Positions 3,001-60,825 of a DNA stretch of 64,000 bases are shown here, piece by piece. This DNA is from a virus. Lineage: Duplodnaviria > Heunggongvirae > Uroviricota > Caudoviricetes. The first letter of the stretch is position 1; every line of letters starts with the position of its first letter. The DNA lies in IMG/VR virus record IMGVR_UViG_3300040801_002879, positions 23,418-87,417 of that record. One strand, given 5' to 3'. The notes under the pieces were generated by a model. That model was not told the DNA's origin and searched no databases. It saw only the letters and a program-made list of their open reading frames with translations. The position numbers were made by a program, and so were the translations under genes.

Positions 3001-3401
3001 TTGCCTTTGTTCAAGGGTATACAGAAGCAGACAATCTAAAAACTTTCTTAGAAGGTGATTTTCTAACTGCTTTAGATAGAATTGTAGCTCTTTTCAATAG
3101 CCTGATGTCTGGTAATTGGAGCATAAAAGTAAGTGTTATTTATGAATCACTGAATAAGTGGCAAACAGGTGGCTCTGCAATTCCTGGGAATTTTGGAACG
3201 GTTGGAGAAACAGGTACAGAGTTCTTTGCTCCACCAATTAGAGGGCATGTTACCTCTCATTCTGAGTTATCAAGTATATTATCTGGTGGTGGGAAAGAGA
3301 CCAAGAAAGAAATTAATATGAATATTACAGGAAGTCCTGTTCAAATGACAGAAGATGAATTAATGAGAATGTTAAGACGTGTGGAGTTCTTATATGGATA
3401 G
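3..3401 (+). CDS. Tail tape measure protein, 5' end outside the window
   Basis: The ORF runs into the window edge and is over 1130 aa. The N-terminal part is charged and coiled-coil-like (EEQ, KDL repeats). Hydrophobic glycine-rich segments lie mid-protein (GLLALGKGGLRVLISSVGAVPLTISIPVGLALLITGIAI). It sits directly upstream of Dit/Tal-like tail genes. Confidence 0.8.
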   Translation: MIAQIISSFFEAHSPPDTGPLQHIDKWGTTLFDTYLEGFAKADFGILKDVAGYIEHILSSWIDIGKLDDDGNMEAMLLQFRQDFAGLLSQFNEFGRVADSAISAVTERFGEASDEIFKLIKLNFQLKSIIEDIEGVEKRKKEVTQAYRDQVRDLMKSNMSLEEQAQLLGQLQQERDKDLAILDEEQEMLEARKDAAQEELDFQKQLLDAYKDQDDIFADMLKAMEDIKDALGGAGGGLSDFELEDIDAEFELEGMAEAQEAMASFSEAMANLNGQALKLELTLRTVFGTIGRKLQSLATDNMGEIILKSDGMKERLTSFAETGLKSISTLESGTKDYNKVVQDMVDIFGKNFMADFFDDMELNDTTLDSTGVKTQAIVDALEEMDDVDLAGFTKAIQNAEGDTDDAFSSMTKLGEGVGELFDAVMLKIEPLYKKIRAFFLALSGQEVDDETMTMTVDGDEVDIAGIDELVNLGHEINQIFAVLEERLPKILGLVGQIGDNVLSGLGIDLVADDISGNVDSILGAIQTFLEKVASIDKPVRMAIGLFLAINAIKTAFQVGGTSLIAPIIKGLLALGKGGLRVLISSVGAVPLTISIPVGLALLITGIAIKKEIKRHDDLREGYAESIRQAAENAKLKYDGEYIYSEKFLEVLIPYRAHLSRMAREGMITDEEFEAWAHALQNYDFASQGLDNMTGVDVPVPIIPEPYIDMRAEDAIAKAMQDALDRLKFSRSAAGDFTAENMIADAIEQAGNAVWGATLPDANNAGQEAGKSYLDGVTTALSQPVELKSIQDIENWAQIFGITPEQLLTEDFEGVEAITIPAPTLAFDDTIVEEVRGLVEQIVSEFNTLFGEADFALTETEGASMAQGIVDGLLAAFSVTTIKAETLYALATNMAGALFNAFAQGGNAEAIAMLQDVGLEWARIISESMDAELFDPKNALSNFVTIVTDLKTASTGLDAGFSMAQSAIEKIIGYVGDGTVWKTFVSDVATLGGEGVGSFGFAFVQGYTEADNLKTFLEGDFLTALDRIVALFNSLMSGNWSIKVSVIYESLNKWQTGGSAIPGNFGTVGETGTEFFAPPIRGHVTSHSELSSILSGGGKETKKEINMNITGSPVQMTEDELMRMLRRVEFLYG

Positions 3402-22851: not shown

Positions 22852-23832
22852 TTAATCTAATTCGGCTCGATTTACAATCGGTAATCTCTTAATCAGGTCT
22901 TGCCTTATTTCTTCTGGCAACCGTGAGGTAATGTCGGGATAGAAGGGGATAGCCAAAACATCTACAATAAACTCTGTACCGTTGTCGTCTAATTCTTTCT
23001 TGACAAGCTCTACGATAAGAGCATCAGCCTCATCATCCCAACGATAGCTAATTTCTGGTTTCTTGAGAATATCGTGTCTAACATAATCAAGTACGTCTTT
23101 TACTCGCTCATGTTCTGCAACTTCTTCTAAGAGAGAAGCAATTGCGCCTTTGATTTGGTCTTCGGTATAATCCTTTCTACCATCAGGTAATAGGGGAACG
23201 TCTTCGATATTTTCGCCATACTTTTCCATAAGCCTGTCTGCAACCTCTGGCTCCATTTCAACTAACTCTGCTCCATTCCATTTGCCGAGAGTACGAAGGG
23301 TTTCGCTGATAGCATAAGGCTTAGCGATAATGGTTTTGAAAGTTTTCTCTAAATCCATGCCTACGTACTGACAGCGTTTGATTGTAGCAAGTCGCTGAAA
23401 TACCAGTGACCGAGAGACGTGACTAGCTTCACAAAAGTAGCCAATAAGGTCTTCCATTCTAGTGAAAGGCTCGCCAGTAAGGGGATTATTCATGCCTACA
23501 TAAATAGGCGTACCGTCTTCTCTAGTCATTTCCGTTAACCGATAGATACGGAATAAACCACGTTCCCGCAAAAGCCTTGATAGGTTTATATCCCTACTCG
23601 CTACCCTCAGTGTGGTTGCTACGTCTCCGTCTACAACTTCTGGCAGTTTTGCGCTGAACAACTCTGCGAATAGCGCAACTAGTCCCAACATCTGTTTCTT
23701 TAGTTTAGGGTCAATACTACCATTACTTTTCAGTGCGTCAAAAGCTTCCTGTAACTGGATGTCATTTACCAGTTGGGCTACTTCCTGCTCCGCACTATCT
23801 GTAAACCCTATATTTACAATTTCATTTGTCAT
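22852..23832 (-). CDS. Hypothetical protein (possible recombination partner)
   Basis: It is 326 aa and shares an operon with the annealing-protein gene. I found no recognisable motif. Confidence 0.55.
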   Translation of the reverse strand: MTNEIVNIGFTDSAEQEVAQLVNDIQLQEAFDALKSNGSIDPKLKKQMLGLVALFAELFSAKLPEVVDGDVATTLRVASRDINLSRLLRERGLFRIYRLTEMTREDGTPIYVGMNNPLTGEPFTRMEDLIGYFCEASHVSRSLVFQRLATIKRCQYVGMDLEKTFKTIIAKPYAISETLRTLGKWNGAELVEMEPEVADRLMEKYGENIEDVPLLPDGRKDYTEDQIKGAIASLLEEVAEHERVKDVLDYVRHDILKKPEISYRWDDEADALIVELVKKELDDNGTEFIVDVLAIPFYPDITSRLPEEIRQDLIKRLPIVNRAELD

Positions 23833-29178: not shown

Positions 29179-29254
29179 GTAGTCGTGGGGGGAGTCGAAC
29201 CCAAACCAACCTGCGCCTTATAAGAGCGATGCTCTAACCATTGAGCTACACGAC
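29179..29254 (-). tRNA. tRNA. The anticodon-loop region is TCTTATAA, so the specificity is uncertain (possibly Ile/UAU-like).
   Basis: A perfect 7-bp acceptor stem (AGTCGTG/CACGACT) with discriminator A is present. The D-arm is GCTC-AATGGTTA-GAGC and the T-loop is GGGTTCGACTCC. The anticodon stem is imperfect when folded by eye. Confidence 0.6.
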
Positions 29255-29281
29255 TAAATATATCTTACCACAAATCTTGGG

Positions 29282-30613
29282 TTATGTCAAGCCACTACTG
29301 CCTAATTGTATTGTAGAAGGGTCTCTACTATATAGTCTTTCATATTCCTCATCCATTTGTATACTAGGACTATAAAATATTTTGCCTGTATTTCTAGCAA
29401 CCGCTTTAAAAAGGTCTACCCATTCATCATCTTCTAAATAATATTTTAGAACAGCATCTAATAGCTCTTGTGCGGAATTTATATTTGTATTTCTTGCAAT
29501 CTCTCTTACTTTGTTGCCAAGCGTATTTGAGGTAACAGCGTTTCTAAGATTTTCTATAAGAAGAATACCATTAAAATCTTTATCAGGTGCAGCATTGTTT
29601 AGATAAGAGATTATAACTGAAACAATATTTGTAGGAGCAGTAATATCTTCTAAAAATCCTTCTGGAAGAGGTTTACCTGCTTCTAGTCCTAGTTTTTGTA
29701 GTTTGCCTCTAATAACATTTGAAATTTGTTCAATACTATAAAAAGTAGTGAAGACTGCCTCTACTGTAAAGCTGTATACAAGGTTTCTGCCAAAACCCTT
29801 CATTACTTCTTCCCACTTTGTAGCGTTTATTCTTAATTCTCTTGAGGATTTTCTTCCCCAAAAATCCATGACTTCTGCCATATTCTTAGAGATTTTCTTT
29901 ACTTCTTGTTCTTGCATACCCATATTTGGAAACCATCTTGTATCATTTACTACTATTTTAGCATATCCAACAGTGCCATCATAATTTCTAAGGTCGGCAG
30001 TGTTTAGTCCTTTATTTTGTTTAGCATTATTACTACTAGTAGACTTAACTTCTATTGTGGTTTTTAACTCTGGAATAAAACCATCAGCGTTTTTTACCCA
30101 ATCTACTTCATCATAATGTTTGTCTAATACAGGGTCATAATATTTACTTAGCTGTGATACATATTGTTTTGTGCTGTTTACATTAAGAGGGTGTAGTAAA
30201 GTAAATCCTTCTGAGGGAGCTTTTTTAAGTTCCCTTTCTAGTGCTTTCTCATATTCCATTTCTACTTTATCAGCACGCCATTTGAAACTCCAATATTGAT
30301 ATTTTGCTCCTTCCTCACTCATAGTAGATTCAATTACGTCTGCTGGACCATGAATTACTTGATTTAGGCTAGATAATTCTTTTGCATGTACTCCTGAAAT
30401 TGAGAGCATTTCTTTATGGTAGTCTTTTATATCATATTTTTTACCTATTAGCTTATCGCCAGCATCTTTCATTTTATCAGCAACAAATTTTGCAGTAACA
30501 GATGTTTTATGTTGTTTAATTCTTTTTGTTCTGCCTTGTCTGTTTGCAGAAGCATTAAACATTGTTTGTTGAACTTGACTTAAAAGACCTGCATGTTCAT
30601 TTGTAATAGTCAC
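29282..30613 (-). CDS. Orphan 443-aa protein, markedly AT-rich relative to neighbouring genes (candidate horizontally acquired gene)
   Basis: The ORF is long and uninterrupted, and Lys/Asn-rich. Its composition looks lower in GC than its flanks. It lies directly beside a tRNA. Confidence 0.6.
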   Translation of the reverse strand: MTITNEHAGLLSQVQQTMFNASANRQGRTKRIKQHKTSVTAKFVADKMKDAGDKLIGKKYDIKDYHKEMLSISGVHAKELSSLNQVIHGPADVIESTMSEEGAKYQYWSFKWRADKVEMEYEKALERELKKAPSEGFTLLHPLNVNSTKQYVSQLSKYYDPVLDKHYDEVDWVKNADGFIPELKTTIEVKSTSSNNAKQNKGLNTADLRNYDGTVGYAKIVVNDTRWFPNMGMQEQEVKKISKNMAEVMDFWGRKSSRELRINATKWEEVMKGFGRNLVYSFTVEAVFTTFYSIEQISNVIRGKLQKLGLEAGKPLPEGFLEDITAPTNIVSVIISYLNNAAPDKDFNGILLIENLRNAVTSNTLGNKVREIARNTNINSAQELLDAVLKYYLEDDEWVDLFKAVARNTGKIFYSPSIQMDEEYERLYSRDPSTIQLGSSGLT

Positions 30614-32283: not shown

Positions 32284-33327
32284 TTATTTTATAAAGCTTA
32301 GTATGTGAACTATCACGTCTACTGTAAAAGAGTTTCCTAATGCCCGTAATCGTTGGGTTTTAGAGATAGGTTTCGTTTTGTCACCAAAATCGCCCATGGC
32401 GGTATAGCCCTCATAGAACGTTTGCAGTCTCTCGACCTCAGTTGGGTGAAATTCTCTTGCACCATCAACGTCTTTGAGTACGTTGTAAGGCACACCTTTT
32501 GCCCAATTAGCTACAACGGTTGCGCTCTTGCTATCTCGAATGTCTGAGTGGTGAGCAAAATCCCAATGGGTACGCCCATCTGCCACCCTACGATTCATGT
32601 AAGCTAAGCCCTTCTCACTCAAGGCAAGCTCTTCTCTAAGCTCTTTAATATGCTCTACTGCTTCGATTTTGATAGCTGATGGGATAGACCCACCACCAGA
32701 GTTAGCACGAATAGTAGGAGATTTCTCAAGAAAAGCACGCATGTTAGGCTCACTAAAGCCACCATAGATATTGTGGATAGCTACAGGAAACACGTTTGGG
32801 TACAGAACGTCTACTAATTCAATTCCTCTGTCCTCTGGTTGAGTAACGTTAGGAATGTTGGTCCAATACAGGCGTTCCCTGCGTTGTGCGCTAACGAGTG
32901 CGCTATCAATCAGGATAGGCTCTACTCCCATAATTTCAGTCATTTCATCCTGCCACTCCTGTTTCATTTTTACGTTTTCAAGCAGGAAATAAACATCAGG
33001 ATTTAGCTCTTTGACATGTTCAAGAATGTCTACAAAGTCATAGAACAGTCGGGAGTCTGACCCTTCCAGTCCTCTACCGTTACCTGCTCGGCTAAGCTGA
33101 GTGCAGGGAGACCCACCAATAACAAGGTCAATCTCGCCAAAGGGAATGTCCCACTCCTGCCACTTAGTAATATCGCCAAGCTGAATAGTATCAGGATGAT
33201 TAAACTGAGTGATAGCAATAGCATACTTGTCAATCTCACTAGCGTAGTAGGCATCAACTTCAATTTCTAATTCCTCTAGTGCTAATTGTGCTCCTGAAAT
33301 TCCGTCAAATAATGATAATACTTTCAT
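32284..33327 (-). CDS. DNA (cytosine-5)-methyltransferase
   Basis: Motif I LSLFDGISG, motif IV GGSPCTQLS and motif VI LLENV are all present. Confidence 0.85.
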   Translation of the reverse strand: MKVLSLFDGISGAQLALEELEIEVDAYYASEIDKYAIAITQFNHPDTIQLGDITKWQEWDIPFGEIDLVIGGSPCTQLSRAGNGRGLEGSDSRLFYDFVDILEHVKELNPDVYFLLENVKMKQEWQDEMTEIMGVEPILIDSALVSAQRRERLYWTNIPNVTQPEDRGIELVDVLYPNVFPVAIHNIYGGFSEPNMRAFLEKSPTIRANSGGGSIPSAIKIEAVEHIKELREELALSEKGLAYMNRRVADGRTHWDFAHHSDIRDSKSATVVANWAKGVPYNVLKDVDGAREFHPTEVERLQTFYEGYTAMGDFGDKTKPISKTQRLRALGNSFTVDVIVHILSFIK

Positions 33328-35025: not shown

Positions 35026-36243
35026 TTAAGAGGATTTAAAATTGTAGATAGGTTTGATGATTTTTAATATTCTTACGCTGTCCTGCACATTATCTACAAT
35101 ATCCTCTAAGCTTTTGTAAGCCATGGGTGCTTCATCTAAGGTACTTTGCCCTACCGATGTGGTGTAAATGCCTTCCATGGTGTCTCTAAAGTCCTCTAAG
35201 CTAAGCTCAGACTTTGCTTGCCCTCTGCTCATTAGCCTACCTGCGCCATGGGGAGCAGAGAAATTCCAATCAGGGTTGCCTTTGCCTTCACAAAGTAAGC
35301 TACCGTCTCTCATGTTGATAGGAATTAGTAGTTTCTGACCTTCATATGCTTCTACTGCGCCCTTACGGATAATATTGTCTTTGAAGCTAATAAAGTTATG
35401 AGTTGTGTGAAAAAAGTTAAATTGGTCCAATGCTCCTAAGCCTATATAATTTAGGATAACTCTAGCCATAACCTTACGATTATACTTAGCATATTCCTGA
35501 GCAATTTCCATATCGTGCAAATAATCTTCTCTATGTTGTCCTGTTAGAAAACATAGCTCAGCAGGATATTGAGGATGTTGCTTATCAAACTTAGCTCTAA
35601 GCTTTTTTAGCTCCTTAGAAATTTGTTTTTGCTTGCCTTCCTTCTTTAGGCGTTTAATCAATTCCTCTTGTTCTTTTTGGTAGCTAGCAGTGTTTTTACA
35701 ATCTTCTATTGCCAAATCCTGATAATATTTAGCAACCTGTAAGCCAAGGTTTCTGCTTCCAGAGTGGATAACTAAGTATAGGTTGCCTTCATCATCTTTA
35801 TCAACCTCTACGTAATGATTGCCTGAGCCAAGAGTACCTAACTGTGCTTCGTAATTTTTATCTGGTATGTTTTTTAGGCACTTTAGTTCTTTAATACTAT
35901 CAAATAAGGCTATAGGAGATTTGTGAGAGTTGAAACCAGCAGGTACGTATTCATGGATTACCTTGTCTAACTTTTCTAAATCCATTTCTATTTTACCTAA
36001 TTTGACTGTTAACATCCCACATCCAATATCAACTCCGACTAAATTAGGCACTACTTTATCCCCTAAGTTAGCAGTAAAACCTATAACGCACCCTGCTCCT
36101 GAATGTACATCAGGCATAATACGTACCTTAGCGTCTTTAGCGAAAGGTTGGTTTAGTAGTTGTATAATTTGTCCTTGTGCTGAGCTTTCTACTTTGTCTG
36201 TAAAAATTTTTGCTCTTCCGTATTTACCGTCTACAAAAAACAT
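35026..36243 (-). CDS. rtcB: RtcB-family RNA ligase
   Basis: The motifs MPDVHSGAGCVIG, GSGNHYVEVD and APHGAGRLMSRGQAK match the RtcB metal/GTP-binding and catalytic-His signatures. Confidence 0.85.
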   Translation of the reverse strand: MFFVDGKYGRAKIFTDKVESSAQGQIIQLLNQPFAKDAKVRIMPDVHSGAGCVIGFTANLGDKVVPNLVGVDIGCGMLTVKLGKIEMDLEKLDKVIHEYVPAGFNSHKSPIALFDSIKELKCLKNIPDKNYEAQLGTLGSGNHYVEVDKDDEGNLYLVIHSGSRNLGLQVAKYYQDLAIEDCKNTASYQKEQEELIKRLKKEGKQKQISKELKKLRAKFDKQHPQYPAELCFLTGQHREDYLHDMEIAQEYAKYNRKVMARVILNYIGLGALDQFNFFHTTHNFISFKDNIIRKGAVEAYEGQKLLIPINMRDGSLLCEGKGNPDWNFSAPHGAGRLMSRGQAKSELSLEDFRDTMEGIYTTSVGQSTLDEAPMAYKSLEDIVDNVQDSVRILKIIKPIYNFKSS

Positions 36244-36287
36244 GGTTGTCTCCTTTATATAAAAAATCCCTGCATTTCATTATAAGC

Positions 36288-36342
36288 ATTATACTACATA
36301 CTCTTCTGAAATGCAAGGATAAAATGTTAACAGATTGTTAAG
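36288..36342 (-). promoter_or_regulatory. Promoter cassette upstream of rtcB (CTTAACAATCTGTTAACAT, then TTGCAT-17-TATAAT)
   Basis: The -35 is the reverse complement at 36311-16 and the -10 at 36288-93. The repeat at 36325-42 is identical to the + strand copy at 60050. Confidence 0.7.
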
Positions 36343-36347
36343 AAATC

Positions 36348-37142
36348 TTATTCAGGATTTACCAAGTAATCTGCTATGTCAAACACTGGCTCTGTACCAC
36401 TGATAACCTGCGGTAATTGTCCATTCCAATTTGTCAAGAATAAATATTGGAGATAGCTCTCACTTAGTGCGCCTGTGTTATTCAAAATTTCTTGAGCATC
36501 AGCTTCTGCTTGAGCATTAATCTTAATTGTCTCAGCGTTAATTTCTGCTTGTTCTCTCTCTAATTTAGCAATTTCTACTTTCTGTTCCTGTACCTGTTTT
36601 TGCTCAATAGAGTTATTATATTCGGCTGAGAATTGAATGTCCTCAATATTTAGCGTTTGAATAATAATATAGAAAGGCTCTAATTCACTCTGTAATTGTG
36701 CTTGTGCTACCTGACTTAGCTCTTCTCTTTGAATAATAATCTGTTCTGCTGTATATTGTGCGGTAGCTGATTTGAACGCCTGTTCAATTTGAGGTTTAAT
36801 TATAATATCCTCATATTCCCTGCCAACTTCCTGATAAAGGTCGGCTGCACGCTCCCCAATAATTCTATAGTTGACAGAAACAATAGCTGATACTGCTTGT
36901 AGATTTGAGCTACCTGCTTCTGTTTGTAATTCAAGCTTTTGCGTTTGAGCAGACATTAATTTTCTGCCTTCAACAAGCGGAATTTTCAAACCAACGCCAG
37001 GATTTACTACTCTGTTGATAGCCCCAAAGCGTGTAATAACGCCTACGTGACCTGCTGGTACAGAGTACACTGAAAAAAGTACTACCACTACTAGCAAGAA
37101 CGCTCCTACTAGCCCTGCAATAAACTTACCTTCACTATTCAT
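36348..37142 (-). CDS. SPFH/band-7 (HflC/prohibitin-like) membrane protein
   Basis: An N-terminal TM helix is followed by an SPFH core (HVGVITRFGAINRVVNPGVGLKIPLVE) and a coiled-coil Gln/Glu-rich tail. Confidence 0.8.
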   Translation of the reverse strand: MNSEGKFIAGLVGAFLLVVVVLFSVYSVPAGHVGVITRFGAINRVVNPGVGLKIPLVEGRKLMSAQTQKLELQTEAGSSNLQAVSAIVSVNYRIIGERAADLYQEVGREYEDIIIKPQIEQAFKSATAQYTAEQIIIQREELSQVAQAQLQSELEPFYIIIQTLNIEDIQFSAEYNNSIEQKQVQEQKVEIAKLEREQAEINAETIKINAQAEADAQEILNNTGALSESYLQYLFLTNWNGQLPQVISGTEPVFDIADYLVNPE

Positions 37143-50430: not shown

Positions 50431-50461
50431 AACGAAGGGGGAGCTCCGCAAATCGGACTAT

Positions 50462-50653
50462 TTAGGTCCGATAAGGGGAGTTTTCAACCCAACAAAACCA
50501 TGAGAAGGGTGAGGTACGCATCCACCGCCCTGGGTTGAGTTTAGCTATTGCTCGCATGGTCTCAGGGTCTTGGTAGTTCTTATCAAGAACCACGAGCAAA
50601 GCATCTTCATCAATAACCTCAGCAGGTCTGTCACCATAATCAATTAGAAACAT
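50462..50653 (-). CDS. Hypothetical protein. Start adjusted to MFLIDYG.
   Basis: The ATG overlaps the upstream stop in ATGTTTCTAATTGA, consistent with translational coupling. Confidence 0.45.
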   Translation of the reverse strand: MFLIDYGDRPAEVIDEDALLVVLDKNYQDPETMRAIAKLNPGRWMRTSPFSWFCWVENSPYRT

Positions 50654-50888: not shown

Positions 50889-51728
50889 CTAATCCCAAGT
50901 AATTCCTAAGATATAGTCGGATGCCTTTTGTGCCAATGATGCGCCTGTGAGTAACATCTGGCGGTCATTCTTGAGCACCTTTAGCCAGTGCTGAATGTAG
51001 GCGGTTGACTGCTGGATGGTATTGTCAATCCCTGCCTCAGCACATAAGAAAGCTGATGTAAATTCTGCCACCAATTCCTCAAGGCTGTACTTCTCATCCC
51101 CGAAAGTATTTTCGATTTTCCGATTGAGACGATTTTCTGCACCAGTGGAGTGTGCTAACTCGTGGAACAGCGCAGAATAAAAGTTGTCGGGAGAATTAAA
51201 ATCTTCTTTCAAAGGCATATGCACCTTATCAGTCGAAGGACTATAGCGAGCACTAATGCCACCAAATTCGATTACAGGAGCATTAGGCATACCCTGTACA
51301 ATCTCTTCTGCTCTCTCAACTGGTTCAAACTCTTCTGCTTTTGGCAAAGACTCGATAATCTCTTCTGCTTCATCAAGCTGTGAAATGGACCAAACCTTGT
51401 AGTAGCGCAACAATGGGAATTTATCACCTGTCTTTTCGCCAGCGTCATCTTTCTTGTCAATCCATTTAAAAAATGCGATATACTGAGGACTTTCACCCTT
51501 GCCAATGCGATACCCATGTTTCTTGATACTCTTGGCGGTAATCCAACGATTGACCCAACCCTCAACGTCTGCGGTATAAGATAATGTAAGCTGGTTCAAG
51601 CCACGATATACTTTGTTACTATCGTGATTGACTGCCCCGCTTGACCATGGCTGATGCCAAGGCAAATCACCCTTTTCCAAACCCTCAATAATCTTTCTGG
51701 TTACAATCTCTCTAATGTCTAATCCCAT
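50889..51728 (-). CDS. ardC: ArdC-like anti-restriction protein (N-terminal ssDNA-binding domain plus C-terminal HExxH metallopeptidase-like domain)
   Basis: The N-terminus (REIVTRKIIEGLEKGDLPWHQPW...YRGLNQLTL) matches the ArdC-N pattern. The C-terminal FHELAHSTGAENRLNRK matches the ArdC zincin motif. Confidence 0.7.
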   Translation of the reverse strand: MGLDIREIVTRKIIEGLEKGDLPWHQPWSSGAVNHDSNKVYRGLNQLTLSYTADVEGWVNRWITAKSIKKHGYRIGKGESPQYIAFFKWIDKKDDAGEKTGDKFPLLRYYKVWSISQLDEAEEIIESLPKAEEFEPVERAEEIVQGMPNAPVIEFGGISARYSPSTDKVHMPLKEDFNSPDNFYSALFHELAHSTGAENRLNRKIENTFGDEKYSLEELVAEFTSAFLCAEAGIDNTIQQSTAYIQHWLKVLKNDRQMLLTGASLAQKASDYILGITWD

Positions 51729-52128: not shown

Positions 52129-52267
52129 AATTTTCCTTTCACTAGTGAATAAGAGCTTGTCTTTGGTTCCGATAAGCGTGGGAGTTCATCACCCGTTGTT
52201 TCAAAGGACTTTCACCTTGCCTACGGTGGGATTTTAACCCTTAGTCCCAAAGTCTCCAAGCTCTCAG

Positions 52268-52340
52268 TACCCCTAGAAGGACTCGAACCCTCATTTCCTG
52301 TTTAGAAGACAGGTGCTCTATTCCATTGAGCTATAGGGGC
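52268..52340 (-). tRNA. tRNA-Arg (anticodon UCU)
   Basis: The acceptor is GCCCCTA/TAGGGGT with discriminator A. The D-arm is GCTC...GAGC. The anticodon stem CCTGT/ACAGG is perfect, with loop CTTCTAA. The T-arm is GAGGGTTCGAGTCCTTC. Confidence 0.75.
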
Positions 52341-52429
52341 AAATATCGGGCTGACAGTCCTCCGCAGTTAACTCTAATCGGTAGGTCACTTACGCTCTGC
52401 TTCTTTTAGAAAGACCCGATGTTCTCACG

Positions 52430-53606: not shown

Positions 53607-53681
53607 AGGACAAATAAGACCAGGATTGTCGCATTTGCGGAGCTCCATTTCGGACTATTTAGGTCCGAATTGGAATATTAT

Positions 53682-55165: not shown

Positions 55166-55258
55166 TAAATACTCCTAATTGGACCTAATTAGTCCAGTTA
55201 CGGAGCTCCGCAATTCAGACTATTTGGGTCCAAATTGGGAGATTTTCAGGGGGTTTTC

Positions 55259-55435
55259 ACACTTCTTCACGCATTTTTCGCTTTCTTTCACGCTGTTTCT
55301 TGCGCTTAATTTCCTCTGCACGCTCACGCTGTAGGCGTTCAATCAGGAAGACGGACTTGCTCCCAACCGTCATACCGTTCCGTTGTTTGTTGCGTTTCTT
55401 GTCACGCCTGCGCTGTTTATCAATCTGGTAAGCCA
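55259..55435 (-). CDS. Highly basic protein of 58 aa (below the ORF-track cutoff): MAYQIDKQRRRDKKRNKQRNG...
   Basis: I translated it by eye. About 45% of residues are Lys/Arg. It has a GGAGAGGATTAAAATG RBS. Confidence 0.4.
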
Positions 55436-55437
55436 TT

Positions 55438-55884: not shown

Positions 55885-56008
55885 CGGAGCTCCTTTCGTA
55901 TAGTCATAGAGAGCTTGGTCTATGAAGCAAAGTCAGGAATCTCACCTAGTCGTGGACTGTAACCCATTAGCACTAGCGTGCCCGCATACATAGAACCAAG
56001 CCCTCTTA

Positions 56009-56089
56009 GTGGAGCCCGCAGGAGTCGAACCTGCTTCTCACCTAAGTACGTCTACCTAGGGTGCACCCTGCTGATTAAGAGTCGAGCCC
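56009..56089 (-). ncRNA. tRNA-like domain RNA with alanine identity elements and no anticodon arm (resembles a tmRNA tRNA-like domain)
   Basis: The acceptor is GGGGCTC/GGGCTCC with a G3.U70 wobble and discriminator A73. The T-arm GCAGG-TTCGACT-CCTGC is perfect. The 5' part GGGGCTCGACTC...AGCAGGG resembles the tmRNA 5' end. A sigma70 promoter lies about 100 nt upstream at 56197-56225. Confidence 0.45.
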
Positions 56090-56196
56090 CATAAATTATA
56101 TCCAGTGCCCGCCCACCGACACCGATGTTAGCCCGCCCATACACCTATTGGCTAACGCCCTCATCAACACAATCAAGGAGAAACATCACTATAAAG

Positions 56197-56225
56197 ATTA
56201 TAACACATATACTGATGTTTGTCAA
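56197..56225 (-). promoter_or_regulatory. Sigma70 promoter TTGACA-17-TATAAT driving the transcript that ends in the tRNA-like domain RNA
   Basis: The -35 is at 56220-25 and the -10 at 56197-202. No ORF lies downstream. Confidence 0.6.
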
Positions 56226-56232
56226 GTACTAA

Positions 56233-56305
56233 TTCGTGGCTGAGGATTTGAACCTCGTCTGCCTAACAGACCGCCCGCTTTTATTTTTATTCAAGCAACC
56301 ACGAA
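56233..56305 (-). ncRNA. tRNA-like element (non-canonical cloverleaf)
   Basis: A perfect 7-bp acceptor (TTCGTGG/CCACGAA), a T-loop GAGGTTCAAATCCTC and a hairpin GTCTG-TTAGG-CAGAC are present. The D-arm is A-rich and irregular. Confidence 0.35.
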
Positions 56306-56308
56306 ACG

Positions 56309-56366
56309 AGTCGTAGGGGGGATTTGAACCACACCATTCTCTAGTAGTCTTGTCCATTAGACGACT
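56309..56366 (-). ncRNA. Minimal tRNA-like element of 58 nt, related to the tRNA at 29179
   Basis: The acceptor AGTCGTC/TACGACT and T-loop GGTTCAAATCC are present. It shares AGTCGT...CCCCCC(N)ACGACT ends with the tRNA at 29179-29254. Confidence 0.3.
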
Positions 56367-56609
56367 ACAACTCTCAGTTATCTTGCGCTTGATAACTTTT
56401 CGTGGGAGAGCAGGGGTTTTCACCCTGATGCCTGTAGCCATCCCCTCTTACAGGCGTTCTCTCTCGGAGACTTCACTCATCTAACGAGACTTCTCACCCG
56501 AAAAATCATCAAACTAATGTTAAAGTTCTGGTGACTGTCAGTGTAAGCCGATTGCTATAATCTGATTACAAGTTTCCGACCTTTGCCGATTGCTTGCCTG
56601 TCACCTAAC
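56367..56609 (-). ncRNA. Promoter-driven structured non-coding RNA of about 240 nt, upstream of the tRNA-like elements
   Basis: A sigma70 promoter (-35 at 56639-44, -10 at 56617-22) sits upstream. No ORF longer than 35 aa is present. Several perfect hairpins are present (GCCTGTA..TACAGGC, GTTATC..GATAAC, CAGGG..CCCTG), plus a long-range GGTGACAG/CTGTCACC pairing and repeated GCAATCGGC and GAAGTCTC words. Confidence 0.45.
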
Positions 56610-56665
56610 TATTTATATTATACCAGCTTGCCTAGAGAAGTCAAGCACTTTATGTTAACGTTTTG

Positions 56666-57103: not shown

Positions 57104-57838
57104 TTATTTCATTATCTGCTCCTTTACAAAGTCCATGGTGCGGGTTTCCAATTCCTTTTGTAAAATTCTATCAGGCTCTTGTGCTTTGAAAAAAGCCTCA
57201 ACCTGCTCAAACTTGCGCTTGTGCCAATCATCAATCAAAGATAAGAATACAGCTAATTCTACCTCATTATTCTTAATCTTCATTAACATCCTTCTAAAGC
57301 GTGAGTCACTCTCAAACCAAAACGCCTCATTCATAGGCATACCGCTTGCCACTCGCTCCGCTAATAATAAAACTCTCAAAGCGTGGTGAGCATCCTTAGT
57401 ATCATAACCAAACTCATCAACAATAGGTTGAGTCTTTGCAGTACCTTTGTATAAGGTGCTCATTTTTTCTCGGTGCATCCCCAAGCAAGCAAACCCAAAG
57501 GAGCGCAAATGAATTTTTGAAATTCTATCAGCATTTTCTTTCAACCAAATAGGAAACCCACCAATACCACCATGAAACTTAGTTGAGAATAAAACCTCAA
57601 CAAAATTTGGATTAGCTTTCCATAACAAGTGAGATAATTGTCGGATGTCATGTACCGTATAATCAAACTCATCGGACTGCTTGCCATTAGAGAACATCCT
57701 ACCCTTGTATAAGTCCTCAAACGTGGGAGCAACAAAGAACTTCCAGTCCTCATCACTCGCAGGCGTGTTTAGATTATAGTTATGCGACCCTGTTAATGCT
57801 TGAATTATAACTCGTCTACCACCAAATCGTTCTGTCAT
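57104..57838 (-). CDS. Pol-beta-superfamily nucleotidyltransferase (RlaP/DUF-type, about 245 aa)
   Basis: The N-terminal motif ALTGSHNYNLNTPASDEDW fits hG[GS]x9-13Dx[DE] of minimal nucleotidyltransferases. The size fits stand-alone nucleotidyltransferases. Confidence 0.6.
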   Translation of the reverse strand: MTERFGGRRVIIQALTGSHNYNLNTPASDEDWKFFVAPTFEDLYKGRMFSNGKQSDEFDYTVHDIRQLSHLLWKANPNFVEVLFSTKFHGGIGGFPIWLKENADRISKIHLRSFGFACLGMHREKMSTLYKGTAKTQPIVDEFGYDTKDAHHALRVLLLAERVASGMPMNEAFWFESDSRFRRMLMKIKNNEVELAVFLSLIDDWHKRKFEQVEAFFKAQEPDRILQKELETRTMDFVKEQIMK

Positions 57839-58046: not shown

Positions 58047-58156
58047 AAGAAGTCAAGGGTAAATCCCAAATCTGATAAATCGGATAAGATTTGTCTGAAT
58101 TGGAGCTCCGCAATTCGGACAATTCCCCTCTTATTTGTCCTATTTGCGGGCTGTGC

Positions 58157-58683: not shown

Positions 58684-58945
58684 TTTGTCTCCTTAGACTG
58701 TTTGATTGATGTATATATTATAAGCTGCGGGAGCCAGAAGGTCAAGCGATTTTCGGCATCGTTAACAAATCGTTAACATTCGCCTGCGCCTGTCCCTGAG
58801 TCTAAATATGGATAAATCAGACCAGGTTTATCCGATTTCGGAGCTCCGCTAATCGGACTAATCAGGTCCAATTAGTCCAATAAGCCGAGCAAGCCAGCAA
58901 TCAGGATGCCTAAGCCAAACAGTATCATCATGCCTACGACTGCCA

Positions 58946-59321: not shown

Positions 59322-59784
59322 TGTTTTCTCCTGTAGTCTAAGTTTGTACTTACAATTATACTCAATTTCGCCAGCTTGTCAAGGGTTATCTGGAAAGTCG
59401 TCTTAGTTCCTTCCACATCAGCCCGAACATGAGTGAAAGAATGATTGTACCTACATTCCACACGCCACCTTGGATATAGCTTGCAATCGCTTGAACGGTT
59501 TCAATAATCAGGTTTTCCATCTCGTTTCCTCTCGTGTAGTTGACTGTATATATTATACACCCCTGCCCCTGCCCTTGTCAATAGCAAATTCCAGTTGTTA
59601 ACATAACGTTAACATTCAATTCGGACAATTCGGATAAGAATACTCCGATTTCGGAGCTCCCTAAAGTGGACAATTTAGGTCCAATTTGTCTTATTACATT
59701 TGTCATATCCTGGGTATAACATTCTGCTTGACACAGGAGCTGGCGTATGGTAATATTATTATATCAACAGAACAGGAGAAAATT

Positions 59785-60054
59785 ATGAGCACAGTTTATT
59801 TCCAGAACGCACAGGGCAACTTTGAAATTGACTTATACCATGACTGGGTAGATGAGGTTACAGGGGTTGAAGATGTGAACATCCTGAGCCTGTCAGAAGA
59901 TGCTCAAGAGTACGTACAACGTTTGCAAAACCTTGGCGGTGACGTAGAAGCTCAACACTCAGACGGTGATAAAATCTTATGCGAGCTATTAACAAAGCTT
60001 GGATATGGTGCAGTGGTGGAAGAATGGGAAAAATTACATCGGTGGTATTCTTAA
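59785..60054 (+). CDS. Hypothetical protein. Start at MSTVYFQ with an AGGAG RBS; the ORF track extends upstream from a TTG.
   Basis: A TTGACA-17-TAATAT promoter lies at 59728-59756. The Shine-Dalgarno is 7 nt before the ATG. Confidence 0.5.
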   Translation: MSTVYFQNAQGNFEIDLYHDWVDEVTGVEDVNILSLSEDAQEYVQRLQNLGGDVEAQHSDGDKILCELLTKLGYGAVVEEWEKLHRWYS

Positions 60055-60105
60055 CAATCTGTTAACATAAAATCGCTTGACTTCTCACTGGCAATCGCTT
60101 ATAAT
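60050..60105 (+). promoter_or_regulatory. Promoter cassette: TTAACAATCTGTTAACAT direct repeat, then TTGACT-17-TATAAT, then conserved leader
   Basis: TTGACT is at 60077-82 and TATAAT at 60100-05. The GTTAACA direct repeat is immediately upstream and overlaps the stop codon of the preceding gene. Confidence 0.75.
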
Positions 60106-60138
60106 ATATATAGTCAACTAGTCAAACAGGAGTTTGAA

Positions 60139-60482: not shown

Positions 60483-60740
60483 ATGAACACACGAACAGCT
60501 TATAAATTTGAAAATAAAGAATATACCACATGGGACAGCCTGTGTGAGGCAGTCGCTGAGGCACATCCTGAGCTATTGGATGATAGCATGGTAGATTTTA
60601 TCGAGTCAGAAGTTGAGGAAATCGAATATACAGCTTGCTATGCTTGCGGAGATTTTATCCCCAACACTGCACCCCCATTCCTCAAAGAAAAGGGTTGTTG
60701 CTCATGGCGTTGTATACAGGATTTGTACGATTATTCTTAA
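60483..60740 (+). CDS. Hypothetical Cys-containing protein
   Basis: It is 85 aa with CYACGD...CCSWRC motifs, and a consensus promoter cassette at 60405-60452. Confidence 0.55.
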   Translation: MNTRTAYKFENKEYTTWDSLCEAVAEAHPELLDDSMVDFIESEVEEIEYTACYACGDFIPNTAPPFLKEKGCCSWRCIQDLYDYS

Positions 60741-60790
60741 CAAATCGTTAACATTAGCCCCTTGACTTTTCAGAGCTAAGGGTCTATAAT
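60740..60790 (+). promoter_or_regulatory. Promoter cassette (GTTAACA repeat, then TTGACT-17-TATAAT)
   Basis: TTGACT is at 60762-67 and TATAAT at 60785-90. Confidence 0.75.
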
Positions 60791-60825
60791 ATATATACAG
60801 TCAAACAACAACCAAGGAGCAAAAA

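Follow-up and report, generated by a model that had tools for sequence, protein, structure and literature searches.

A modular, promoter-driven non-coding RNA locus with tRNA-derived elements in an uncultivated tailed phage

Described tRNA-associated RNAs and the phage locus

Phage T4 encodes two stable RNAs, species 1 (rnaC) and species 2 (rnaD), which have been known since the 1970s and are released by tRNA-processing enzymes; we know of no function assigned to them to date. Here we describe a locus that invites comparison with these RNAs, located in 64,000 nt of the virus record IMGVR_UViG_3300040801_002879 (positions 23,418 to 87,417). This whole stretch, hereafter the window, comes from a novel, uncultivated tailed phage. 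The RNA locus is a unit of about 720 nt on the minus strand (56610-55908), reaching about 330 nt past position 56233, where the original prediction, made from the sequence alone, had placed its end. It carries two promoters, is non-coding, and consists of folded modules that are conserved through compensatory changes and interspersed with elements of tRNA ancestry. We favor, with moderate confidence, the view that it is an early polycistronic non-coding RNA operon in which the top halves of tRNA derivatives serve as processing signals for RNase P and RNase Z and as stabilizing signals. The features of the unit, of a sister locus and of a related tRNA are listed below in the order of transcription of the unit. 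Fold z-scores, here and throughout, were computed against dinucleotide shuffles; MFE denotes minimum free energy and TLD the tRNA-like domain of transfer-messenger RNA (tmRNA).

56617-56644, minus strand: promoter P1; TTGACT at 56644-56639, 16-nt spacer, TGgTATAAT (TATAAT at 56622-56617); 11/12 matches, with TG extension
56525-56610, minus strand: module M1, an 86-nt three-way junction; MFE z = -2.95
56388-56516, minus strand: central domain; 21-bp closing helix (UAGUUUGAUGAUUUUUCG.. with ..CGAAAAGUUAUCAAG) around a variable three-hairpin interior; z = -4.86
56377-56396, minus strand: local hairpin GUUAUC-AAGCGCAA-GAUAAC, which competes with the 3' strand of the closing helix
56308-56373, minus strand: element 1, a tRNA-Ile(UAU) paralog minus the anticodon arm; Rfam register 56371-56309; 58-nt core of the original prediction 56366-56309
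56233-56305, minus strand: element 2, 73 nt; MFE cloverleaf, z = -4.07
56197-56225, minus strand: promoter P2; TTGACA, 17-nt spacer, TATAAT; 12/12 matches, with TG
56098-56186, minus strand: module M3; starts UUCUCCUU..GAUGAGGG, then two hairpins with invariant loops UGGUGUAUGGG and UCGGUGGGCGGG
56010-56090, minus strand: element 3, alanine-type and tmRNA-TLD-like; MFE cloverleaf, z = -2.3; located by an acceptor and T-arm scan
55908-56006, minus strand: module M5a; 17-bp helix with one bulged U and an interior of about 60 nt; 3 nt past element 3; z = -4.34
52152-52420, minus strand: sister locus; M4 52420-52345, tRNA-Arg(UCU) 52340-52267, long-stem M5b 52264-52152 (113 nt)
29179-29255, minus strand: tRNA-Ile(UAU), the intact paralog and source of element 1; Rfam 55 bits, ARAGORN call

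The likeness to the stable RNAs of phage tRNA clusters, which the original prediction had drawn, proved apt, the T4 tRNA cluster being the closest analog. There, rnaD and rnaC come in this order directly after tRNA-Arg, and rnaC ends in a T-arm (CCGGG-UUCGAAU-CCCGG); in the window, M5b comes directly after tRNA-Arg(UCU). Both sets of RNAs are phage-encoded, non-coding and arranged head-to-tail with tRNAs, co-transcription in the window being judged from the layout of promoters and terminators. The two share no sequence similarity (best blastn E = 1.9), and their folds differ. In contrast to T4, the RNAs of the window have their own consensus early promoters, their modules are shuffled among relatives, and the punctuating tRNA copies are degenerate where those of T4 are intact. 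The distinctive feature with respect to phage stable RNAs processed with tRNAs is the punctuation by anticodon-less tRNA derivatives. Rfam assigned nothing in the locus at gathering score, and only two ordinary tRNAs elsewhere in the window passed. At gathering score and at E <= 10, no riboswitch, ribozyme, 6S RNA, RNase P RNA, GOLLD/ROOL or small RNA family was found. Since Rfam holds no model for rnaC or rnaD, this negative result does not separate the locus from the T4 kind.

Embedded tRNA-like signals have been described outside phages. In MALAT1, a tRNA-like processing signal (mascRNA) lies within a longer transcript. To our knowledge, tRNA-like punctuation inside a bacteriophage early non-coding RNA operon has not been described. 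The t-elements of plant mitochondria, identified with the motif GGTTCRANYCC, are substrates of RNase P and RNase Z, whose cuts set the ends of the adjoining RNAs (PMC1920247). They resemble the elements of the window in being non-canonical cloverleaves that keep the T-arm and the acceptor and are embedded in longer transcripts. The structural prerequisites of a t-element are present in elements 2 and 3 and weak in element 1. Both t-elements and MALAT1/mascRNA differ in that they belong to organelles or nuclei and adjoin mRNAs or long non-coding RNAs, and in that cleavage in the phage is a prediction.

GOLLD and ROOL are phage RNAs commonly found close to tRNA islands, some with embedded tRNAs (PMC12286853). 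They have in common with the present locus that they are phage-encoded, elaborately structured and tRNA-proximal. The locus differs from them in having no Rfam match and in comprising independent modules of 80-140 nt instead of a single 600-800-nt fold. They illustrate that tRNA-proximal phage RNAs can be remarkable molecules.

Bacteria have a further tRNA mimic without a decoding anticodon arm in the Y RNA YrlA, on which RNase P and the CCA-adding enzyme act (PMC4201824). It is tied to RtcB RNA-repair operons, and the phage encodes RtcB. The locus, too, has tRNA-like modules that lack a normal anticodon arm, as well as long terminal stems. A YrlA-like RNA, with a tRNA-like module and a stem binding Ro60/Rsr as in rsr-yrlA-rtcBA operons, is nevertheless an exceedingly improbable identity for the locus, and we regard it as effectively refuted. 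A Y RNA would be expected to have a Ro60/TROVE gene within about 4 kb on the same strand, and there is none nearby: the stretch from about 45 to 64 kb has no open reading frame (ORF) of at least 280 amino acids, and none of the ORFs tested matched TROVE. The Ro-binding motif, defined as GNCGAAN0-1G (PMC4201824) and expected near the 5' end, is missing from both loci in a regular-expression search. The topology differs as well, the tRNA-like domain of YrlA lying within a stem whereas the acceptor ends are free here.

Promoters, strand and conserved modules

The promoter that the original prediction had placed upstream of the locus (-35 at 56639-44, -10 at 56617-22) was confirmed as a near-consensus sigma-70 promoter on the minus strand. 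This promoter, P1, is kept in the homologous loci L005, L087, L091 and L092, and transcription probably starts near 56610. The -35 hexamer of P2 begins 8 nt past the 3' end of element 2; P2 is kept in L005 and is followed by a further stretch of about 290 nt without an ORF. All genes from about 22 kb to the end of the window lie on the minus strand. The final 14 kb or so forms an early-type region of dense small ORFs and consensus sigma-70 promoters, with 71 promoter-like sites against 31.5 expected.

The earlier view that the region holds no credible ORF also stood. The only ORF of at least 60 amino acids (56229-56441, 70 amino acids) has no Pfam match and recurs in none of the homologous loci. 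The loci resemble one another in all six frames, solely in fragments of at most 36 amino acids, and gene callers predict nothing in the corresponding stretch of L002, L003 and L005. The protein-coding reading was therefore rejected, that of a conserved small protein included. Folding is better on the minus strand than on the plus strand, and the helices include G-U pairs, indicating an RNA of the minus strand.

Homologous loci were retrieved with the gene for the nucleotidyltransferase RlaP as an anchor, from among 80 fetched RlaP loci; in what follows, W is the window's own copy and L-numbers denote the fetched ones. L002-L004 represent the same phage in three other samples (99.9-100% identical). 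The diverged loci have RlaP identities of 81% (L005), 70% (L087), 58% (L092) and 55-57% (L088, L090 and L091), and a more distant phage, L121, has 51%. The locus is thus carried by related phages, and its base pairs show compensatory changes, which bears out the conservation that the original prediction had called for. The order of the modules differs among them.

W: M1, central domain, element 1, element 2, P2, M3, element 3, M5
L005: M4, central domain, one tRNA-like element, P2, M3, a stem
L092: M1, tRNA-like element, M3
L091: M1, M3, conserved 15-mer

These differing orders indicate separate functional units on one transcript, not one large RNA. Accordingly, the proposed structured RNA of about 240 nt was only half right. 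The region is structured (z = -3.1 for the whole 377-nt unit), but it is M1 plus the central domain, two independently shuffling modules, and not a single RNA.

M1 is built from helix P1 (GGUGAC/GUCACC), a two-part helix P2 capped by an AAAG loop, and helix P3 (UCAG/CUGA), and carries the conserved words UAAUCAG and UUACRCUGAC. The first of these helices is the long-range pairing noted originally; the pairing is real, with 6 bp between GGUGAC (56605-00) and GUCACC (56535-30), while the 8-nt words quoted for it were not correct. M1 is 99% identical between W and L087, against 73% for the adjoining RlaP DNA. With these two copies as its basis, a covariance model retrieved the L092 copy (44.7 bits, E = 3e-8), in which all helices are maintained through substitutions. 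MAFFT alignments of M1 and M3 were structurally inconsistent owing to variable inserts, and stems were therefore counted on hand-delimited strands. On this basis every pair in the M1 stems is canonical, with many two-sided changes.

The closing helix of the central domain is paired at 21 of 21 positions in both W and L005, and three pairs are changed on both sides; slid-strand controls gave just 40-55% pairing. The local hairpin reads GUUAUC-AAGCGCA-GAUAGC in L005, a U-A to U-G change. The perfect hairpins reported from the sequence were found in place at 56455-56430 (GCCUGUA-12 nt-UACAGGC), 56396-56377 (GUUAUC-8 nt-GAUAAC) and 56427-56411 (CAGGG...CCCUG); the loop of the last, UGAAAAC, has 7 nt and not 6. 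The word GCAAUCGGC is present twice in the locus as stated, and the duplication is not conserved, because the second copy is GCAAUCAGC in L087. The word GAAGUCUC, said to occur three times, has two copies in the locus, and its frequency in the window (5 observed, 2.2 expected) is unremarkable.

Downstream, M3 was compared in W, L005 and L091. Both of its stems have been fully replaced and still pair, while the loops UGGNGUAUGGG and GGUGGGYGG are invariant. The G-rich loop may be complementary to the 16S decoding site over 9 nt including wobble, a match that we set aside. M4 is 83% identical to L005:1497-1561, where it occupies the place of M1 inside the main locus. M5a has a paralog in the element after tRNA-Arg, and an analogous element trails a tRNA-like RNA in L121. 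The invariance of certain loops and words (GGUGGGYGG, UAUGGG, UAGUUUGAUGAUUUU, UAAUCAG) suggests that they bind a partner, either RNA or protein. The locus offers a compact comparative system, with new modules, invariant loops on freely covarying stems, shuffling among relatives, and tRNA-derived elements in which selection is seen for the processing half alone.

The modules appear to be new RNA families, represented so far by a handful of metagenomic phage contigs. The locus had no blastn match among the 50,697 phage records of INPHARED, and the family-A DNA polymerase of the phage is at most 32% identical to any INPHARED entry. Searches of E. coli genomes for relatives of the locus gave noise only. 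Relaxed regular expressions across all fetched loci recovered the known clade only, and L092 was the sole addition from the covariance model R1.

A terminator-like intergenic element brackets the transcription unit at 57089-57028 and 55236-55177. No such repeat lies between the RNA locus and the ORFs at 55884-55257, so transcripts from P1 and P2 should read through the RNA modules into these ORFs. Because the RNAs would be co-transcribed with mRNAs, discrete RNAs could arise only by endonucleolytic processing. The same layout raises the alternative of a cis-acting leader, in which the locus would be a long structured 5' untranslated region controlling the stability or translation of the small ORFs from 55884 on. 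M5a does terminate at the Shine-Dalgarno sequence of ORF 55884, and the RNA of L091 runs into the Shine-Dalgarno sequence of its next ORF. We consider a leader very unlikely all the same. The modules switch order and place, M4 standing at the tRNA-Arg locus in W but within the main one in L005; different relatives have different ORFs next to the RNAs; and two internal promoters together with tRNA-type elements are atypical of known bacterial leaders.

The 3' edge of the RNA locus varies naturally between strains. A 23-nt direct duplication (ATGACTATACGAAAGGAGCTCCG) at 55885-55907 generates the Shine-Dalgarno sequence of ORF 55884 and is absent from the otherwise identical L003 (L003:2575).

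The intergenic element itself is about 60 nt long (..GGAGCTCCG[T/C]AAATTGGAGTAATTAGGTC..) and marks the borders of early transcription units in at least 10 copies, with both orientations represented. A 19-bp hairpin resembling a terminator is formed by one of them (51871-51827). The element is also found in L005, L087, L091 and L092, and is probably a bidirectional terminator or insulator.

Copies of the intergenic element in the window: 57089-57028, 55236-55177, 58811-58873, 59621-59690, 53609-53672, 51895-51835, 54868-54831, 61317-61268, 50440-50471, 58065-58119

The tRNA-derived elements and their possible role

The T-loop GGTTCAAATCC occurs exactly twice in the 64 kb, both times at the locus (elements 1 and 2), against 0.08 expected, and the two tRNA-sized elements that carry it are real. 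Their anticodon regions are aberrant, as had been noted: the anticodon arm of element 1, 15 positions of the tRNA model, is replaced by 6 nt, and element 2 has a 3-5-nt loop in place of the anticodon loop. The D-like loop of element 2 (GAAUAAAAAUAA) contains no GG. ARAGORN called only the tRNAs at 29179 and 52267 in the window; the latter, tRNA-Arg(UCU), is supported by Rfam as well.

Element 1 scored 23.1 bits on the Rfam tRNA model (RF00005), below the gathering score of 29. In the Rfam alignment its acceptor is GUUGUAG/CUACGAC, its D-arm is GUCU-AAUGGACA-AGAC, and the T-arm likewise takes its normal place. The 58-nt core (AGUCGU...ACGACU, 56366-56309) shares its ends with tRNA-Ile (AGUCGUG...CACGACU), as originally observed, and the two also have in common the AAUGG D-loop and an unusual CCCCCC T-stem. 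Element 1, which L005 lacks, is a deletion derivative of the tRNA-Ile paralog rather than a tRNA minimal by design. The tRNA-Ile(UAU) gene itself looks functional, despite an odd T-stem of three G-C pairs and two U-C mismatches and a variable region of about 10 nt; directly upstream of it lies an unannotated 443-amino-acid ORF (29282-30613) without a Pfam or PHROG match.

Element 2 comprises a 7-bp acceptor, a D-like arm with an A/U loop, a 5-6-bp arm with the 3-5-nt loop, and a 4-bp T-stem with GGUUCAAAUCC. Its acceptor is perfect, as claimed (UUCGUGG/CCACGAA, 7/7 Watson-Crick). ARAGORN made no call for it, and a 156-nt search gave no Rfam tRNA match even at E <= 10. A counterpart in L005, identified by position, has the acceptor UUCCGUG/CACGGAA, that is, compensatory changes, and the acceptor and T-stem of the two copies differ solely in ways that preserve pairing.

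The acceptor of element 3 is GGGGCUC/GGGCUCC, with G3:U70 and A73. Its T-arm (GCAGG UUCGACU CCUGC) is perfect, and the place of the anticodon arm is taken by a 10-bp rod that ends in a GACG tetraloop. The element has no encoded CCA; its 3' end reads ACUA, with the flank A then CUA. The G3:U70 pair, A73, the UUCGACU T-loop and the missing anticodon are features shared with the TLD of tmRNA, and the Rfam tmRNA model (RF00023, 20 bits, E = 1.2e-5, TLD ends only; gathering score 47) gave element 3 a higher score than the tRNA model did. It has 44 nt in place of 324 positions of the tmRNA model and, in contrast to tmRNA, no mRNA-like region, pseudoknots or tag reading frame. ARAGORN made no tmRNA call for element 3. 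A TLD-only tmRNA is known from jakobid mitochondria, whose DNA is reported to encode a reduced form of the molecule (PMC3590771).

The possibility that the modules derive from tmRNA or RNase P RNA, raised by shared 7-9-mers (CUUAAUCAG, UAGUUUG, GCAGGGUGC), was dropped. Comparison with E. coli ssrA gave chance-level matches only (E >= 3), with no similarity to the ssrA body, and the only likeness to tmRNA or RNase P RNA that the Rfam covariance models detected was the TLD of element 3. Partial tRNA copies of the attP type are also unlikely, as each acceptor has both its halves and the ORFs tested included no integrase. From the latter result we infer that the phage is virulent.

Across W and its relatives, the elements have been reduced on one side only. 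All eight have a T-loop of the GGTTCRANYCC type, one with a C to G change, and the acceptor is paired in every complete element, the L087 copy being cut by the contig end. A 7-nt anticodon loop is missing from all readable elements. In L005 the loop of the element measures 6 nt; the L092 element has a 5-nt loop and a bulged acceptor, yet it reached 34.9 bits on the Rfam tRNA model, above threshold. Such one-sided retention would be expected from selection on the half recognized by RNase P, RNase Z and the CCA-adding enzyme, unlike random decay. The elements also stand exactly at module boundaries, as a true tRNA does: tRNA-Arg separates M4 from M5b in the same way as element 3 separates M3 from M5a. 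U(-1) precedes elements 2 and 3 and both true tRNAs, and both true tRNAs and element 3 have a CCA-less 3' context, A followed by CU(A/G).

This pattern bears directly on the idea of a relic tRNA cluster, in which the elements are pseudogenes without a role of their own and only the modules, or nothing, are functional. Element 1, plainly derived from tRNA-Ile by deletion, and the L092 element, which looks like an early stage of decay, fit this idea, and close relatives have anywhere from 0 to 3 elements. We nonetheless regard a relic as an unlikely alternative. Decay should strike evenly, whereas here the anticodon loop has been lost in every readable element and the T-loop and acceptor kept. 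The acceptor of element 2 has changed by compensatory steps between W and L005, this element is far more stable than its shuffles, and the position of the elements at module boundaries, like that of the true tRNA-Arg, also speaks against a relic.

If the locus is instead an early operon punctuated by tRNA top halves, the two tandem near-consensus sigma-70 promoters would allow transcription by the host RNA polymerase immediately after infection. The transcript would be a chain of self-contained folded modules (M1, central domain, M3, M5) interspersed with tRNA derivatives that have lost the decoding half, with its anticodon loop, and retained the acceptor/T-arm top half. Host RNase P would cut at the 5' ends of the top halves, whose 3' ends would be trimmed or extended by RNase Z/BN or exonucleases together with the CCA-adding enzyme. 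These cuts would split the precursor into discrete small RNAs, detached from the downstream mRNAs. The closing helices of 17-21 bp are possible RNase III sites or might protect the ends. Bacterial RNase P requires only the acceptor/T-arm stack, and RNase BN/Z matures the CCA-less tRNAs of T4.

Several observations weigh against processing by tRNA top halves. L091, L088 and L090 carry M1, M3 and the 15-mer with zero tRNA-like elements, so the punctuation is dispensable for at least some modules. Element 1 forms no cloverleaf by thermodynamics (z = -0.89) and pairs only 3 of 5 positions in its T-stem; for these reasons it may be an inert relic. M3 (z = +0.29) and M4 are no more stable than shuffles. 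The two-sequence shuffle control was not significant, with 65 of 500 shuffles reaching the observed value, and with only about five independent sequences the covariation statistics are weak. Pattern scans of IMG/VR and GTDB returned nothing, or chance matches in GC-rich coding DNA. Cleavage of the transcript and the discrete products are predictions. Should punctuation by RNase P and RNase Z hold true, the locus would parallel, in a bacterial virus, the tRNA punctuation of mitochondria and MALAT1-mascRNA processing, and would caution against writing off phage "pseudo-tRNAs" as junk.

RNA-repair neighborhood and further observations

The locus lies beside one gene of RNA repair, and the genome encodes another.

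57104-57838, minus strand: RlaP nucleotidyltransferase (Pfam PF10127, E = 1.4e-10); one small ORF separates it from the RNA locus downstream
35026-36243, minus strand: RtcB, adjoining an SPFH/Band-7 protein gene (35026-37142 together)

RtcB and RlaP form a phage RNA-repair set, in which RlaP appends 1-2 nt to the damaged 3' ends of RNAs, before or after ligation (PMC7824862, PMC12776372), and helps to restore repaired tRNAs (PMC12776372). The position of the locus beside RlaP, with RtcB in the same genome, suggests a connection, open to experiment, with RNA damage and repair in the infected cell.

This neighborhood suggests another role for the elements, namely that the top-half mimics are active agents, serving as decoys, sponges or substrates within a counter-defense against RNA-targeting immunity. 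Candidate partners, as factors that read the acceptor/T-arm half, would be host acceptor-end toxins or nucleases, AlaRS, EF-Tu or SmpB (for element 3), and the phage's own RlaP-RtcB. Besides the RNA-repair genes, including the SPFH partner of RtcB, several points agree with such a role: the promoters predict early and strong expression; element 3 combines G3:U70 and A73 with its best score on the tmRNA TLD; two similar alanine-type elements are found in the unrelated RlaP phage L056; and the distant L121 has a promoter-driven non-coding region of 850 nt with large tRNA-like RNAs directly upstream of RlaP. Most of the 80 RlaP loci, however, have no tRNA or tRNA-like element nearby, so an association above the general clustering of phage tRNAs could not be shown. 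PADLOC found no matches in the neighborhood of the locus, no element is tied to a specific partner, and the relatives of the L091 type have no elements. Active mimicry of this kind seems to us quite unlikely.

A more specific form of it is distinctly unlikely. The locus would be the RNA arm of a counter-defense, in which early top halves made in bulk, and an alanine-accepting element consisting of the TLD only, divert acceptor-end factors or rescue stalled ribosomes. Ribosomes stalled on cleaved phage mRNAs would be rescued without degradation tagging. The RNAs would act alongside RlaP and RtcB, with M1, M3 and M5 as decoys that bind proteins or RNAs.

Other genes of the window also resemble counter-defense functions: an ArdC-like antirestriction metallopeptidase (50889-51728, minus strand) and a C5 cytosine methyltransferase (32284-33327, minus strand). 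Three genes downstream of the RNA locus, a 59-amino-acid, extremely basic, Arg/Lys-rich ORF (55257-55436, minus strand) keeps its position in L005 and L091. It has no family match, and is conceivable as a candidate RNA-binding partner.

Further tRNA-like RNAs were seen among the fetched RlaP loci. The ORF-free region of L121 (L121:9100-10000) has a consensus promoter and encodes two large tRNA-like RNAs (134 and about 112 nt) with an acceptor, a T-arm and inserts of 70-95 nt. They start GG[G/C]UGGCGGCGUG and are followed by long-stem elements; the region has no sequence match to any other locus. In L056, the two alanine-type elements (L056:892-977 and 982-1052; G3:U70, A73) lack a normal anticodon arm and were missed by ARAGORN. 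L049:4184-4297 and L054:3377-3490 each hold a 114-nt tRNA-like gene, 42 nt downstream of RlaP, with normal acceptor, D- and T-arms, an insertion of about 41 nt in the anticodon loop, and no ARAGORN call. This could be an intron-containing tRNA in a phage with RNA-repair genes. In L086 (97-201 and 669-765), where a phage tRNA cluster precedes RlaP by about 3 kb, two elements of 97-105 nt inside this cluster each have a single acceptor stem around two consecutive T-arm-like hairpins (GGTTCGA.TCC twice). The 1.3-kb ORF-free stretch after RlaP in L038 (4736-6054) carries short tandem iterons (AAATTTTCCCCC, CTATCAAAAC, CACTGTGACAA, TAGATTACATA). We rejected it as an RNA gene, since this iteron-rich DNA resembles a replication origin or genome end.

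Conserved words containing a GTTAAC palindrome (AATGTTAACGGATTGTTAACAA, TAACAAAACGTTAACATAAA) were found upstream of many consensus early promoters and are candidate operator sites for a phage regulator.

GTTAAC-palindrome words: 57007-56985, 56668-56645, 60051-60114, 60737-60797, 44071-44007 and 42579-42528 in the window; L005:3209-3230 and 3319-3339

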